IMG/VR virus record: IMGVR_UViG_3300044618_000713
Span: 1-64,000 of that record
From: a virus
Length of the DNA stretch: 64,000 nt
Strand: one strand, 5' to 3'
The notes below the pieces were generated by a model. It was not told the origin of the DNA. It saw nothing but the letters and a program-made list of their open reading frames with translations, and made no database searches. Made by a program: the position numbers and the translations under genes. Within the stretch, counting starts at the first letter, position 1, and each line of letters starts with the position of its first letter. This document shows, piece after piece, positions 211 to 61,098 of the stretch.

Positions 211-352
211 TACCTCTTGCACCGCTTCCGATGATGATCCCACTCGCCGCCACGGCGGATGCAATCCCGCCACGCCTGCTCCTGTTCGGGAGGCATCCGT
301 TTGGCCAATAACGCCAGAAGAAGAGGAAGAACGGGCCGTACAGCAGCCGTGA
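1..352 (+). CDS. DUF6378-like protein, 5'-truncated copy with read-through C-terminus
   Basis: SKIGRILSGNPHESDHWRDIAGYATL motif; N-terminus lies at 38043-38074 if phage A is circular. Confidence 0.7.
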   Translation, partial: HGDYYQVSMMAQELKDAMRRGKKWRILDDMQRETLEMIASKIGRILSGNPHESDHWRDIAGYATLIERWLTSCTASDDDPTRRHGGCNPATPAPVREASVWPITPEEEEERAVQQP

Positions 353-32969: not shown

Positions 32970-34094
32970 CTAGACAAGTTTACCAAGGGCAGCAGCAAGA
33001 TGCTTGCCGACCTGCAACGACGCCGGGCGCGGATCATCCGCGGGTGCCAGCGTGTCACCCGATGAGACGGCGGTGATGAGCCCTTCCGGCATGGCGAGCT
33101 TGTGCTTCTTCAGCACCTTCTCGACCTGCGCCGGGCTCTTCAGCTCCGTCAATTCCTCAGCACTACAGCCTGCTTCGGCAAGGGCTGTCAATGCCGTCTG
33201 TTCGTTCACCCACTGGCGCATCGCCCGCTTGGGCACCAACTTCCAGCCGGGCAGCTCGACGCCCGCCTCCAGCAGTTCGACGGCCATCTCGCGGGCGTCC
33301 CTGATCCAGCCCTCCAGCAGGTCGATGCTGGCCAAGGCTTCCGAAAGCCGGAAGATGTTGACCGCCTTGATGTTCTCGCGCTTGGCGCGCTCGACGGCGC
33401 CGTTCACCAGCGGGCAGATCGACTTGGCAGCGCACCAGCGGCAGTGGTCGCCGGTCGCCAGCGGTGCGTCCGGCCGCTGCGCGGTCTTGACGGCCATGAT
33501 CAGCTCGGCCTCGAAGCGGCGCACCCGGTCGAGGTCCGTCACCCAGCGCCGCACATGCGGCGGCTGCACGATGATCACCTCGACCGTCTCGACGCCCTCG
33601 AAGGCCCAGCGTGTCGCCTCGGTGCGAAGTGCGGCAGCCGTGTAGAAGAGCGCCTGCGGGTTCTCTTCAGCCTCGACAGGCACGCCATCGCCAAACTTCC
33701 AGTCCAGCAGGATACCGCGATTGCCAATCCGGCCAACAAGATCGGCGGAACCAAAAACACCAGGGAGAGCGTCACCAAAGCCCACCACCTGCTCGACCGC
33801 GTATTCCATCTGTCCATCGGGGTCGATATCATTCAGCGCCTCCCATGCGGGCAGCAGCTTGCGCTCCAGCCGGTCCTCCGTCAACTCGATGCCGTTGTGC
33901 ATCGTGCCGAGGAAGTCGCGCGGGTCCTTATGCGTATCCAGAATGGTGGCGATGACGTTGTGCAGCAGCGTGCCCTCGTCGGCGTAGCTGCTGGACGGCT
34001 TGGGCGGCACCTGCTGCACAAGCGCGACGCTGCCGGGGCACGCGATGACGCGCTTGGCGGTCGAGCCGCCGACAATGTTAGAGTGTTGGGCCAT
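32970..34094 (-). CDS. Cas4-like PD-(D/E)XK exonuclease (DUF2800)
   Basis: HS...GSTAKR...CPGS; FGSAD...LDWKFG...NPQ..FY; GDHCRWC..K..CP. Confidence 0.88.
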   Translation of the reverse strand: MAQHSNIVGGSTAKRVIACPGSVALVQQVPPKPSSSYADEGTLLHNVIATILDTHKDPRDFLGTMHNGIELTEDRLERKLLPAWEALNDIDPDGQMEYAVEQVVGFGDALPGVFGSADLVGRIGNRGILLDWKFGDGVPVEAEENPQALFYTAAALRTEATRWAFEGVETVEVIIVQPPHVRRWVTDLDRVRRFEAELIMAVKTAQRPDAPLATGDHCRWCAAKSICPLVNGAVERAKRENIKAVNIFRLSEALASIDLLEGWIRDAREMAVELLEAGVELPGWKLVPKRAMRQWVNEQTALTALAEAGCSAEELTELKSPAQVEKVLKKHKLAMPEGLITAVSSGDTLAPADDPRPASLQVGKHLAAALGKLV

Positions 34095-34119
34095 ACTGTA
34101 TTCTCCTGTTGTTTCGTCA

Positions 34120-34170
34120 GTCGTTACAGATTTCTTGTTGACCTGTCAAGCATTGTTTGTTAGAGGCTGG
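34120..34170. promoter_or_regulatory. Overlapping divergent promoters
   Basis: TTGACCTGTCAA gives a -35 on each strand, between divergent DUF2800 and VRR-NUC genes. Confidence 0.5.
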
Positions 34171-34172
34171 TC

Positions 34173-34487
34173 ATGGTACGCGAAAGTGAAATCGAGAAGT
34201 ACTTCGTTTGGACGGTGCAGCGCATGGGCGGGACGGCCTACAAGTTCAAGTCGCCCAACCACCGCGGCGTGGCCGACCGCATCGCCTGTCTGCCGGACGG
34301 CTCGACGTGGTTTGTCGAGTTGAAGGCACCCGGCGGACGGCCATCCCCGCTCCAGAAACTCTTCGCGGCCCGCATGAAGGAACTCAGGCAGAACTACACG
34401 ATACTATGGTCAAAGACGGAGATAGACGAATGGCGGCATACTATAACGAGTTCGACCCCTACGCAGCCCAATGGCTGCGCAACCTGA
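34173..34487 (+). CDS. VRR-NUC nuclease
   Basis: RESEIEK...GG.AYKF.SP..RGV.DR......G..WFVELK..GG..S.LQ. Confidence 0.9.
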   Translation: MVRESEIEKYFVWTVQRMGGTAYKFKSPNHRGVADRIACLPDGSTWFVELKAPGGRPSPLQKLFAARMKELRQNYTILWSKTEIDEWRHTITSSTPTQPNGCAT

Positions 34488-35608
34488 TCGACAGTAAACT
34501 GATAGCGGAAGGTGATGTAGATGACAGATCAATTCGGGGCGTGGCTCCGGGCGACCTCAAGGGTTACACGCAGTGCCACTTCTTCGCCGGTGTCGGCGTC
34601 TGGTCCTACGCCCTCCGTCTCGCAAGATGGCCCGACGACCGGCCCGTCTGGACCGGCTCCTGCCCTTGCCAGCCATTCAGCGCCGCCGGAAAGGGAGCAG
34701 GATTTGCCGACGAGCGTCACCTCTGGCCGGAGTTTCATCGGCTCATCAGCGAGTGCCGCCCTCCAGTTGTCTTTGGAGAGCAGGTTGCGAGCAAGGACGG
34801 CCTCGGCTGGCTCGACACTGTACAGTCTGACATGGAAGCATCGGGCTACGCCATTGGGGCGGCAGATCTGTGCGCTGCGGGCATCGGCGCCCCGCACATC
34901 CGCCAGCGCCTCTGGTTTGTCGGAGAAAGGTTGGACGACACCGCAGGCGCACGACACCTCGGGGCGCTCGCTCGGGCAGAAGGAGAAGCACGGGACGAAG
35001 CACGGCTGCGCCTGTCTGGTGAGGGACGCAGATCTGGCGGGCTGGCCAACGCCGCGCTCGACGGACGGCGACAAGGGATCGAGGACGGCGGAAGGCTGCG
35101 AAGCGGAGATCGCGCGGAAGGGTCGGCTGGACGACCTGCCATCGACGGCGGTTTATCTGGCGGGCTGGCCGACACCATTGGCGGCGGACAGCCGGGGCCG
35201 GGCGGGGGCGGCGGCGCACAAGGACAGCGAACTTCCGAACGCGGTTTGCAAAGTGGATTGGTCGGGCTGGAACACGCCAGCAGCCTCGGACGGGAACGGG
35301 GGCAAGCGCCCGCACCCGGACACGACGATGACGGGCCAGCACCCGGAGGGCAGGAAGGTGAACATGGGGCTGGCCTCACAAGTTCACATCGGCTTCCTCA
35401 AGACGGAGCCCGCCCGACTAACGGCCACTGGCGAGATGCTGACTGGCTCCACTGCCGGGATGGCCGCTGGCGGCCAGTTGAACCCGGCACATTCCCGTTG
35501 GCTCATGGGGCTCCCGCCCGAGTGGGACGCCTGCGCGCCTACGGCAATGCCATCGTCCCGCAAGCAGCGGCAGAAGTGATAGGAGCCTACCTTGACGCTC
35601 GCCCTTAG
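34430..35608 (+). CDS. DNA C5-cytosine methyltransferase, catalytic (alpha) chain
   Basis: FFAGVG (I), GSCPCQPFS (IV), EQV (VI), PHIRQRLW (VIII), AYGNAIVP (X); no motif IX in this frame. Confidence 0.88.
   Translation: MAAYYNEFDPYAAQWLRNLIDSKLIAEGDVDDRSIRGVAPGDLKGYTQCHFFAGVGVWSYALRLARWPDDRPVWTGSCPCQPFSAAGKGAGFADERHLWPEFHRLISECRPPVVFGEQVASKDGLGWLDTVQSDMEASGYAIGAADLCAAGIGAPHIRQRLWFVGERLDDTAGARHLGALARAEGEARDEARLRLSGEGRRSGGLANAALDGRRQGIEDGGRLRSGDRAEGSAGRPAIDGGLSGGLADTIGGGQPGPGGGGGAQGQRTSERGLQSGLVGLEHASSLGRERGQAPAPGHDDDGPAPGGQEGEHGAGLTSSHRLPQDGARPTNGHWRDADWLHCRDGRWRPVEPGTFPLAHGAPARVGRLRAYGNAIVPQAAAEVIGAYLDARP
34521..35579 (+). CDS. Overlapping-frame beta chain of the C5-MTase (GWxTP repeats plus motif IX)
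   Basis: 352-codon open frame inside the MTase; four GWxTPxxxD repeats; QLNPAHSRWLMGLPPEW resembles motif IX. Confidence 0.7.
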   Translation: MTDQFGAWLRATSRVTRSATSSPVSASGPTPSVSQDGPTTGPSGPAPALASHSAPPEREQDLPTSVTSGRSFIGSSASAALQLSLESRLRARTASAGSTLYSLTWKHRATPLGRQICALRASAPRTSASASGLSEKGWTTPQAHDTSGRSLGQKEKHGTKHGCACLVRDADLAGWPTPRSTDGDKGSRTAEGCEAEIARKGRLDDLPSTAVYLAGWPTPLAADSRGRAGAAAHKDSELPNAVCKVDWSGWNTPAASDGNGGKRPHPDTTMTGQHPEGRKVNMGLASQVHIGFLKTEPARLTATGEMLTGSTAGMAAGGQLNPAHSRWLMGLPPEWDACAPTAMPSSRKQRQK

Positions 35609-36920
35609 ACCCTACCAGAACGACGCGGTGACGTTCCTCTACGAGCGTGACCGCGCCATGATCCTGGCCCCGGTGGGCGCGGGCAAGACCGCCATCACGC
35701 TCACCGCCATGCAAGAGTTCATGGTCAACGGCGTGGTCAAGCGGTGGCTGGTCGTCGCCCCCAAGCGGGTCTGCACCGACGTGTGGCCGGTCGAGGCCCC
35801 CAAGTGGGCGCCGGACCTGACCATCGCCGTGGCGGTCGGTAACGCCGCCAAGCGCCGCGCCGCCTTCGCCTCAGACGCCGCGGTGGTCGTGGTCAACTAC
35901 GACGTTCTCGACGTCGTGGGCGAGGACTTCGCGCGGTTTGACGGCATCGTGTTCGACGAACTGACCCGGCTCAAGAACCCGTCCGGCAAGCGGTTCAAGG
36001 CACTGCACAAGCACCTAGGGCGCTTCAACGTGCGGATCGGCCTCACCGGATCGTTCACGTCAAACGGGCTGGAGGATGTGTTCGGACAGTGCTTCGTGAT
36101 CGACCCGACGCTGCTGGGCCGCACCAAGGGGGCGTTCCTGCAGCAGTACTTCGTCTGCATCAACCGCGACTTTGGCGAGTGGATGCCACGGCGCGGTGCG
36201 CTGGAGCAGGTGATGACCCGCATCCGCCCGGCGACGTTCGTGCTGGAGCCCGGCGTCTACAAGGACAAGCTGCCGCCGTGCCATGTGGTCGAGATGCGCT
36301 GCGACATGCCCGACCGCGAGCCATACGAGAAGATGAAACGCGACTTCATGGTTAAGATGCAGGGCAAGGACATCACCGCCATGTCGGCGGCTGCGGTCAC
36401 GACCAAGCTTCAGCAGATGGCCAGCGGTTGGGTCTACCATACGGTGGACTGGAACGGGCCGTACCGTCTGCCGGTCTGGTTCTCGACGCACCGCTTCGAC
36501 CTGCTGGACGAGGTGCTGGAGGGCAACCAGCGGGCCAACACGCTGATCGTCTACAACTTCATCGAGGAGTTGGCGGAACTGAAGCGCCGCTATCCTGGGC
36601 GGCTGTGGACGCTGGACGACGGTGCCGACGTGATCGAGCGCTGGAACGCGGGCAAGATTCCGCTGCTGGCGGTCCACCCCAAGTCGGCAGGCCACGGCCT
36701 CAACCTGCAACACGGCGGCCATCACCTGGTGTTCCTGTCGCTGCCGTGGTCGCTGGAACTCTACGAGCAGGTCGTCGGCCGTCTGCACCGCAGCGGGCAG
36801 GAGCGCGACGTGTGGGTCTACGTCCTGCTGACGAACAAGACTATCGACGAGCGCATCTGGGCGGCCCTTGCCGACAAGCGCGCCATATCGGACATCGCAC
36901 TGGAGGAGTTGAAGGGATGA
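35592..36920 (+). CDS. SNF2-like SF2 helicase
   Basis: LRPYQ, GAGKT, FDE, LTGS, GHGLNLQ and GRLHRSGQ. Confidence 0.92.
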   Translation: MTLALRPYQNDAVTFLYERDRAMILAPVGAGKTAITLTAMQEFMVNGVVKRWLVVAPKRVCTDVWPVEAPKWAPDLTIAVAVGNAAKRRAAFASDAAVVVVNYDVLDVVGEDFARFDGIVFDELTRLKNPSGKRFKALHKHLGRFNVRIGLTGSFTSNGLEDVFGQCFVIDPTLLGRTKGAFLQQYFVCINRDFGEWMPRRGALEQVMTRIRPATFVLEPGVYKDKLPPCHVVEMRCDMPDREPYEKMKRDFMVKMQGKDITAMSAAAVTTKLQQMASGWVYHTVDWNGPYRLPVWFSTHRFDLLDEVLEGNQRANTLIVYNFIEELAELKRRYPGRLWTLDDGADVIERWNAGKIPLLAVHPKSAGHGLNLQHGGHHLVFLSLPWSLELYEQVVGRLHRSGQERDVWVYVLLTNKTIDERIWAALADKRAISDIALEELKG

Positions 36921-60034: not shown

Positions 60035-61098
60035 GATGCAATTCCTTTTGGCATTAGCCATTGATCAATCACAGCACGCGCAACTTGCTCAGTCATCTTG
60101 GGTGGAACGCTCATGCCAATCATGTATTTGCCAATCTTGTCGGTCTTGGCGTGATAGTCATCTGGGAAACTGCCGAGGCGTTTCCATTCGCGGAAAGTAA
60201 GTGTTCTAGGTGAATCCCAATGATTTATCATCTCATGCGTGGCTGTTAGTGAATTGGCTGGAATCAAAGCATGTAACCTTTTATGATTCCATAGCTTCTC
60301 CTTTAGACCTGCCCTCACTACAGCGTCAGCATATTGCTCGCCTTGTTTTGTTTTCGGCCACCAAGTCAAATCTGTATTTGAGACGTGACGAGTGTCTTCT
60401 AGTTCTTCTTTGATCAGATGTTGCACGTCGCAGCATGACTCTTCCGGACCTATCCATCGATGCGTTGGTGACAACTTCAACGGCAACACTTCAATGTCAT
60501 TCCGGATTGCAACAAAAAACACCCGCTCTCTCCGCTGCGGAACTCCACAGTCAGCAGCATTTAAAAGAAACAATTGAGGCCGATATCCAATCTCACGAAA
60601 ACGCGCCATGACCATCTTGGTATAGCCCTTGGCATTGCCAAGGATCATTCCCTTGACGTTTTCAGCAATTGCAACTTTCGGCTTGAGCCGTTCAACAAGG
60701 TCAAGGTAATCAAAGAAAAGGTCAGACAGCACTTGCTTTGCCTGGCCTTCACGGAAGTGTTTGTCCTTTCCCCACGCCTTTTCGCGGCTTCCTGCCATGC
60801 TGAATGTTGAGCAGGGCGGCGAGCCATCAAGGATGTCGAGTTTGAAGAGTTCCGGAGGAAGATCAGCAGTCAGCAAGTCACGGATTGGACAAAGAAAATA
60901 ATGAGGTGGATTGAGATTGCGCTTGTAGTGCCAAGCCATTTCAGGGTCGATGTCATTTGCTGCAATGATTTCGCATCCGGCTCTTTTGTAGCCCATTGAT
61001 GATCCGCCACCGCAAGCAAAGGTGCTCATGACCTTAATGCCATTCTTTGGCACTGATGCAAGGTCAGTCAAATTCCAAGCGCAATCAGGCTTATTCAT
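60031..61098 (-). CDS. DNA C5-cytosine methyltransferase (single chain)
   Basis: FACGGG, GSPPC, ENV, PQRRER, RTLT..E..RL.SFP (IX), IGMSVPP (X). Confidence 0.9.
   Translation of the reverse strand: MNKPDCAWNLTDLASVPKNGIKVMSTFACGGGSSMGYKRAGCEIIAANDIDPEMAWHYKRNLNPPHYFLCPIRDLLTADLPPELFKLDILDGSPPCSTFSMAGSREKAWGKDKHFREGQAKQVLSDLFFDYLDLVERLKPKVAIAENVKGMILGNAKGYTKMVMARFREIGYRPQLFLLNAADCGVPQRRERVFFVAIRNDIEVLPLKLSPTHRWIGPEESCCDVQHLIKEELEDTRHVSNTDLTWWPKTKQGEQYADAVVRAGLKEKLWNHKRLHALIPANSLTATHEMINHWDSPRTLTFREWKRLGSFPDDYHAKTDKIGKYMIGMSVPPKMTEQVARAVIDQWLMPKGIAS

Follow-up and report, generated by a model that had tools for sequence, protein, structure and literature searches.

A gene at positions 34430-35608 of the virus record IMGVR_UViG_3300044618_000713 carries two long overlapping reading frames on the same strand, here called alpha and beta, and we estimate a probability of roughly 85% that together they encode a two-chain orphan phage DNA (cytosine-5) methyltransferase (C5 methyltransferase). 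The window analysed comprises the first 64,000 nucleotides of this record, which is 75.5 kb in length and has direct terminal repeats; the phage was also detected in lake-water metagenomes. The evidence comes from the stop-free state of both frames in relatives, the selection acting on each frame zone by zone, an internal start signal, the fold of the alpha chain and the mosaic build of a cassette array in beta.

Two open frames in one methyltransferase gene

The alpha frame is free of stops from 34208 onward and, starting from the ATG at 34430, encodes 392 amino acids, while beta is a +1-frame open reading frame (ORF) of 352 codons that is nested wholly within alpha (Table 1). The G+C content of the gene is 65%. 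Alpha matched PF00145 with 54.8 bits (curated cut-off, 22), covering only positions 65-165 of the 324 in the profile, and phrog_363 with an E value of 2e-85. Its residues 70-167 align with residues 71-172 of M.HhaI, and a Foldseek search with the alpha model retrieved the large-domain fold of M.HhaI (E 5.6e-8) and M.HaeIII (E 6e-8). Motifs I, IV, VI and VIII are all found on alpha as invariant columns of the alpha alignment, with the ENV-like motif VI reading GEQV, and motif X reads GNAI (residues 372-375), the G and N being invariant across the same alignment. No variable region and no motif IX were found between motifs VIII and X of alpha, and a filler is present there instead. It is rich in Gly, Ala and Arg (25, 13 and 12% of residues 168-328), unconserved and variable in length among relatives, and its sole recurring motif, GGLA, is the shadow of the head of a beta unit. 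Across the loci the filler spans 85-357 codons, and the alpha frame is open throughout.

The initial annotation, made from the letters alone, had described the 352 open codons of the +1 frame, four GWxTPxxxD repeats therein, motifs I, IV, VI, VIII and X of alpha around a Gly/Arg-rich middle, and a single-chain methyltransferase for comparison. Each of these features was found at its place, correct to the base for ORFs, motifs and repeats, and the composition of the alpha middle agreed. The single-chain enzyme is canonical and matches PF00145 over its full length.

Table 1. Features of the alpha/beta gene and its comparison enzyme, with synonymous fractions by zone
Feature	Coordinates	Strand	Basis
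Alpha ORF, catalytic chain of C5 methyltransferase	34430..35608	+	PF00145, phrog_363, fold match to M.HhaI/M.HaeIII
Alpha residues 1-165, part of large domain with motifs I, IV, VI, VIII	34430..34924	+	Invariant columns, pLDDT, synonymous fraction 0.82-0.91
Alpha motif I (FxGxG)	34577..34603	+	
Alpha motif IV (PCQ)	34655..34681	+	
Alpha motif VI (ENV-like)	34772..34786	+	
Alpha motif VIII (QxRxR)	34886..34924	+	
Alpha residues 166-328, Gly/Ala/Arg-rich unconserved filler that merely stays open	34925..35413	+	No conservation, pLDDT ~33
Alpha residues 329-392, conserved C-terminal strands and motif X helix	35414..35605	+	Invariant columns; confident helix 377-390
Alpha motif X	35540..35563	+	
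Beta ORF, probable recognition chain	34521..35579	+ (+1 frame)	phrog_1008, open in relatives
Beta start: partial Shine-Dalgarno AAGGTG (34509-34514), in-frame TAG (34518-34520), ATG (34521-34523)	34509..34523	+	Sequence
Beta leader, residues 1-75, open but unconstrained as protein	34521..34745	+	Synonymous fraction 0.18 in beta vs 0.82 in alpha; pLDDT <50
Beta anchor, residues 76-127, helix and hairpin with LTWK motif, over alpha motifs VI-VIII	34746..34901	+	Both frames constrained
Beta array, four GWxTP modules of types A-D-K-C (37, 41, 34 and 48 amino acids)	34929..35408	+	Synonymous fraction 0.87 in beta
GWxTPxxxD unit starts	34929, 35040, 35163, 35265	+	
Beta residues 297-335, TL-like core (RLTAT) and motif-IX-like LNP..RWLMG.PPEW	35409..35525	+	Both frames constrained, beta dominant; invariant columns
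Motif-IX-like stretch LNP..RWLMG.PPEW	35475..35525	+	
Beta tail and stop, over alpha motif X, alpha constraint again dominant	35526..35579	+	Synonymous fractions 0.74 alpha, 0.30 beta
Zone alpha 2-26, upstream of beta start			Synonymous fractions 0.91 alpha, 0.16 beta
Zone alpha 40-112, beta leader			Synonymous fractions 0.82 alpha, 0.18 beta
Zone alpha 128-165/beta 98-135 (anchor)			Synonymous fractions 0.57 alpha, 0.42 beta
Shared modules of the middle (295 pairs)			Synonymous fractions 0.09 alpha, 0.87 beta
Zone alpha 330-345/beta 300-315			Synonymous fractions 0.53 alpha, 0.40 beta
Zone alpha 346-366/beta 316-336 (motif IX)			Synonymous fractions 0.36 alpha, 0.71 beta
Zone alpha 367-385/beta 337-352 (motif X)			Synonymous fractions 0.74 alpha, 0.30 beta
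Second C5 methyltransferase, canonical single chain	60070..61038	-	PF00145 positions 1-321 of 324, E 2e-50

The gene is widespread. With the beta profile, 17,613 cluster representatives were retrieved at E ≤ 0.001; tightening the threshold to E ≤ 1e-10 left 11,706, and E ≤ 1e-30 left 8,053. A word-indexed search found at least 5,526 clusters. With tblastn, the alpha and beta translations matched phage genomes at shared sites, each in its own frame, and both genes of the overlap are annotated in one Xanthomonas phage record. For stop counts, 80 viral loci were fetched and the 37 non-redundant ones were used, delimited per locus; the bacterial sample drew 80 prophage loci from genomes of Alpha-, Beta- and Gammaproteobacteria and of Desulfovibrio-type bacteria. 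Beta occupied the +1 frame relative to the N-terminal part of alpha in every locus (about 160, viral and bacterial together), and the C-terminal part of alpha shared the frame of the N-terminal part in 80 of 80 bacterial loci and in all viral loci but L071; one truncated locus had no match to the C-terminal part.

Over about 1 kb, neither alpha nor beta contained a stop in any of the 37 viral loci, versus a mean of 14.1 stops in the third frame and 4.2 to 8.5 in the reverse frames. Both frames were also stop-free in 75 of the 80 bacterial loci (third-frame mean, 12.6), including genes at 53-57% G+C. Frequent stops in the +1 frame of homologs had been named at the outset as evidence that would tell against two chains, and these counts leave the two-chain reading standing. 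Synonymous shuffling that kept the beta protein gave an expectation of 2.97 alpha-frame stops in the middle, and shuffling that kept the alpha protein gave 1.22 beta-frame stops over the alpha N-terminal part, while none was observed at either place in all 37 loci. The summed log10 P values were -55.9 (alpha middle) and -28.4 (beta over the alpha N-terminal part); as the loci are related and not fully independent, these combined probabilities are merely indicative, though the effect is uniform. All 99 loci examined had a stop-free beta leader, where 74.8 were expected, and the 30 codons upstream of the beta start held a mean of 1.44 beta-frame stops. Chance alone falls far short of explaining the two open frames.

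In DNA as rich in G+C as this gene, long shadow frames arise often, and the +1 frame might accordingly be a chance shadow ORF, or else a product of assembly frameshifts. However, 4-14 stops interrupt the third and the three reverse frames across this stretch. Purifying selection on beta is strong (synonymous fraction, 0.87), and beta has the 11,706 relatives counted above at E ≤ 1e-10. The arrangement is also seen in independently assembled sequences from many hosts, the genes at 53-57% G+C among them. Already contradicted by the comparative data, this explanation retains a negligible chance of being right.

In Xenorhabdus, Yersinia and Brenneria prophages (L165, L159, L126 and L140), the gene has a G+C content of 53-57%, which is above the genomic value of those hosts; this raised G+C could be a side effect of the need for two stop-free frames. 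Three copies were broken or altered: L055 has an alpha stop at codon 120, L071 changes frame near position 1945, and P0105 is a one-contig fusion of alpha 1-118 with beta through a +1 shift. These are either assembly errors or real variants. Single-chain forms with both parts in frame were sought among eight odd-length beta relatives, none of which contained PF00145, and P0105 was the sole exception overall.

The first beta-frame ATG past the last upstream stop lies 79-121 nucleotides (nt) into alpha in 92 of 102 non-redundant loci. A GGAG, GAGG or AGGA core was present 4-18 nt upstream of this ATG in 54 of the 102, compared with 9.2% of background windows (P 3e-29). The Shine-Dalgarno (SD) sequence and the ATG co-vary in position between +91 and +109. 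With the ATG at +91, the SD is built from Gly-Asp/Glu codons, and with the ATG at +109, Arg-Ser is written AGG AGC, giving AGGAG at the proper distance. In a large protein library, the start positions that others had called for most beta proteins are these same ATG sites.

Selection and predicted structure along the two proposed chains

Selection was measured on single-base codon differences between relatives, as the share that is synonymous in each frame. As summarized in Table 1, constraint along the gene falls on alpha, on both frames, on beta, on both frames again, and finally on alpha, and site diversity by codon position agrees with these fractions. There are two doubly constrained zones of about 50 codons each. 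Alpha wobble diversity drops to 0.24 at the beta anchor, and at alpha 346-365 all three codon positions are nearly frozen, with a site diversity of 0.05-0.17. The order of constraint is collinear with the canonical succession of motifs I-VIII, variable region, motif IX and motif X. Per-frame codon conservation had been proposed as a check on the two-chain reading, which is consistent with the switching of constraint between frames. The analysis also went beyond the earlier description in two respects, namely, the unconstrained beta leader of about 75 residues and the zones in which both frames are constrained.

The same collinearity would be expected of one chain produced by two programmed frameshifts, a +1 shift near alpha codons 120-165 and a -1 shift just before motif X, which would yield a canonical enzyme; the metagenome contig P0105, with its fusion of the alpha N-terminal part to beta by a +1 shift, also fits this explanation. 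It does not explain, however, why the alpha frame is open over 85-357 filler codons in every locus, nor why the beta frame is open back to a conserved SD and ATG about 225 nt before its conserved part. The doubly constrained zones, at some 50 codons each, exceed the needs of a shift site, and M.EcoHK31I functions as two separately expressed chains. We therefore give the double frameshift only a slim chance.

For alpha modelled alone, residues 1-170 and 375-392 were predicted confidently, most ten-residue blocks of the N-terminal part having a predicted local distance difference test (pLDDT) score of about 85-96. Residues 173-340 scored about 33, residues 340-373 were weak, and the helix at 377-390 was confident. 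Beta modelled alone with AlphaFold2 had a mean pLDDT of 51, its first 75 residues falling below 50, and because of this low mean no fold search was made on it. Beta matched phrog_1008 (E 2e-35) and also phrog_31772, both labelled DNA methyltransferase. It had no Pfam match at E ≤ 1, its profile gave only chance matches (E > 1) against all solved structures, and an ESM Atlas look-up with beta 78-352 returned no usable match.

When alpha was modelled together with beta 78-352, the complex scored 0.91, while the best of three controls scored 0.03. Of 80 solved complexes, 58 attained this mark, as did 2 of 110 mismatched pairs; both counts are approximate, as our own alignments were used. Contact agreement between runs was at least 53%, and partner pLDDT was at least 61. 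In the modelled interface, beta 78-121 meets alpha 125-166, and beta 295-342 meets alpha 326-390 (including 336-378) and the alpha N-terminal helix; the modelled contacts of beta 297-335 are with alpha Y371, residues 376-377 and residues 154-156. Alpha modelled with and without beta, another check proposed in the initial annotation, did not refute two chains; alpha alone has no folded small domain. The complex model suggests that the two chains can complete the C5 fold; it does not establish that they bind. In the model, alpha 350-357 and beta 321-327, which are encoded by the same nucleotides (35477-35501), touch crosswise, alpha 351 with beta 327 and alpha 357 with beta 321.

Downstream of its array, beta has one TL-type core (RLTAT) followed by the motif-IX-like stretch. 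The spacing between the two is that of the canonical enzyme at 60070-61038, with which the stretch LNP..RWLMG.PPEW is in register by eye, although profile comparison is not significant. With hhalign, the beta alignment and the canonical enzyme gave one 10-column match over the TL-like core at E 0.27, too weak to count. The initial annotation had placed a motif-IX-like end on beta: the stretch is there, but the likeness did not reach significance as a profile match.

Alpha alone could instead be the methyltransferase, and beta a protein with no tie to it that was overprinted on the gene, such as a further anti-defence factor. Alpha does have all the catalytic motifs and a conserved C-terminal region, and beta belongs to no Pfam family and has no solved relative. 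This alternative is nevertheless difficult to reconcile with the missing folded small domain of alpha (pLDDT about 33 over 173-340), with the TL-like and motif-IX-like elements that beta carries in canonical order and spacing and that sit, in the model, against motifs X and VIII of alpha, or with the fact that the pair is kept together in all of the roughly 160 loci. We consider it quite improbable.

Under the two-chain reading, ribosomes starting at 34430 would make alpha, which would supply the S-adenosylmethionine-binding, catalytic large domain (motifs I-VIII), followed by a disordered filler some 160 residues long and by strands and the motif X helix folding back on the large domain. Translation from the internal ATG at 34521, in the +1 frame, would produce beta. 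Its anchor is predicted to dock at the edge of alpha motifs VII-VIII, and its TL-like core and motif IX to pack against motif X and the N-terminal helix of alpha. The chains would jointly restore the order I-VIII, variable region, IX, X, and beta would provide the small DNA-recognition domain in trans.

Several points weigh against this reading. Beta resembles motif IX and a TL core over short stretches, without significance in profile comparison, and neither a Pfam family nor a solved relative vouches for these likenesses. As C5 methyltransferase structures have already been solved, the pass of the complex model may partly reflect likeness to single-chain enzymes. The conserved alpha residues 329-365 could be a small recognition element of alpha's own. 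The SD of the beta gene in the window is only partial (AAGGTG), and the position of the beta start, about 225 nt upstream of the conserved part, is unexplained. We infer that beta is translated, binds alpha and determines the target sequence, and that the enzyme shields phage DNA from restriction by the host.

A mosaic array of GWxTP modules in beta

Copies of a 38-nt DNA repeat stand at three of the four unit starts in the window. Among 148 parsed beta proteins the number of units ranges from 1 to 7, with a mode of 3-4; in a wider sample the same parse gave up to 9, and a direct count gave 13 in one protein of 834 residues. Module types were defined by greedy clustering at 60% identity, which replaced a single linkage that had merged 401 of 545 modules. 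This yielded 47 recurrent types, arranged in 126 architectures among the 148 proteins. Type A is mostly first and type C mostly last, while other types occur at any position. Seven loci whose alpha N-terminal DNA is 91-96% identical to that of the window have seven other architectures with wholly different arrays, and module D of the window shares 89% DNA identity with a module of L037, whose alpha N-terminal part is only 71% identical. These two observations indicated that recombination has made the array a mosaic, set between conserved flanks.

The initial annotation had supposed that the repeats can expand in the beta frame while the alpha frame merely has to stay open, and the data agree, with 87% of differences in the shared modules synonymous in beta and 9% in alpha, and with 1-13 units per protein. 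If the overlapped stretch of alpha is a mere linker, as we propose, beta modules could be gained, lost or swapped harmlessly as long as the alpha frame remains stop-free. Each GWxTP unit is perhaps a separate, putative target-recognition module, which would make the enzyme multispecific; only one TL-like core, itself a weak match, lies between the array and motif IX.

We suggest, tentatively, that the overlap serves as an evolvability device. The specificity subunit would lie inside the catalytic gene, and stop-free GWxTP cassettes would recombine at their shared heads, giving related phages different and perhaps multiple targets, while alpha would read them as linker and chain parts made from shared nucleotides would bind each other. 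As a whole, this proposal is somewhat more apt to fail than to hold.

Among lake-water contigs from four runs, compared with 33500-36500, a joint at 35251/35407 marks a possible variant that lacks module 4 (net loss, 141 nt), and a joint at 34701/35472 marks a possible variant with another array between conserved flanks. These contigs are fragmentary and of low depth, the likeness threshold was 85%, and no conclusion was drawn from the variants.

Some relatives carry further domains in the beta frame. L010 (1735-2172, +) has an endonuclease VII/HNH-like domain (phrog_3322, E 2e-24) where leader and anchor meet; this insert has 143 codons, the alpha frame is open across it, and it falls between alpha motifs VI and VII/VIII. 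An HNH endonuclease domain (phrog_1271, E 4e-14; PF01844 on P0069) occupies the C-terminal tail of beta in L046 (2437-2994, +) and in protein P0069. The local site is apparently duplicated on either side of the HNH domain, as in a homing insertion, and alpha reads on to a second copy of motif X. In Edwardsiella phage eiAU (L002, 1622-3040, +), the beta frame runs stop-free into a separately annotated Dam gene (PF05869), a possible beta-Dam fusion.

Genomic context and relation to known systems

The gene is embedded in a replication module, with genes for a primase, a DNA polymerase, an exonuclease, a VRR-NUC-type endonuclease and an SNF2-type helicase as neighbours; no restriction endonuclease partner was found among these replication-type genes. 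The module is tightly packed around alpha: the upstream VRR-NUC-type gene (34173-34487) overlaps the alpha start by 58 nt, and the downstream helicase ORF, taken from its first possible start (TTG at 35592), overlaps the alpha end by 17 nt. With the enzyme at 60070-61038, the phage carries two cytosine methylases. Within this one record, between 26000 and 54000 of the window, the G+C content is about 0.65 at 26-36 kb but about 0.53 at 38-54 kb, which reflects either a mosaic genome or a chimeric assembly.

A tblastn search of plasmids with beta gave 27 records, with prophage-type copies only; where the matched region is annotated, nearly all carry just the label 'DNA cytosine methyltransferase', and no restriction gene appears there. 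The initial annotation had proposed a heterodimeric, possibly multispecific anti-restriction methyltransferase. Computation now favours two chains from overlapping frames; the anti-restriction role we infer from the orphan state of the gene and its place in the replication module. A literature search to which most subscription journals were out of reach found no description of this phage family as dual-coded. Since most records annotate just one gene of the two, most of the beta subunit family is without a label.

Among bacteria and phages, long overlaps between genes on one strand are uncommon and often met with doubt. The present overlap, of 1 kb, has been preserved in thousands of genes, with a clear function proposed for both products and a readable map of selection. 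If beta sets the target, its array of cassettes would offer a natural repertoire of C5 recognition modules and would explain how such phages keep up with the restriction systems of their hosts.

The closest known layout is that of M.EcoHK31I from E. coli HK31 (recognition sequence YGGCCR; Lee, Kam and Shaw 1995, as cited in PMC2836561), an alpha/beta C5 methyltransferase whose beta lies inside the alpha gene in another frame; both chains are needed, as silent removal of the beta start codons abolishes activity, deletion of the beta N-terminus weakens association with alpha, and the layout is already a platform for targeted methylation (PMC2836561). The phage beta is likewise nested on the same strand in another frame, a comparison of described layouts rather than of sequences, and just as the N-terminal part of the M.EcoHK31I beta drives association, beta 78-121 is the modelled anchor of the phage chain. 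M.EcoHK31I belongs to a restriction-modification pair, whereas the phage gene is an orphan in a replication module. The literature places the target-recognition domain (TRD) of M.EcoHK31I in alpha, while the variable region of the phage enzyme is in beta and the alpha middle is filler. The phage beta is further set apart by its leader of 75 residues and by its row of shuffled modules, 1-13 in number.

M.HhaI and M.HaeIII share the alpha fold, and their motifs IV-VIII align with those of alpha, but their small domain (TRD and motif IX) is on the same chain. M.AquI is a two-subunit C5 methyltransferase whose fold is split within the variable region, with adjacent genes and motif X on the second chain; the phage gene, in contrast, is nested, and motif X is back on the first chain. 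The multispecific C5 methyltransferases of the Bacillus phages SPR, phi3T, rho11s and H2 are orphan, single-chain enzymes with an exchangeable row of modules between motifs VIII and IX, each of which was shown to confer one target. Like them, the enzyme described here is a phage-borne orphan with a row of modules exchanged between relatives; unlike in theirs, the modules lie on a separate, overlapped chain, share a common GWxTP head and are followed by one TL-like core after the array.

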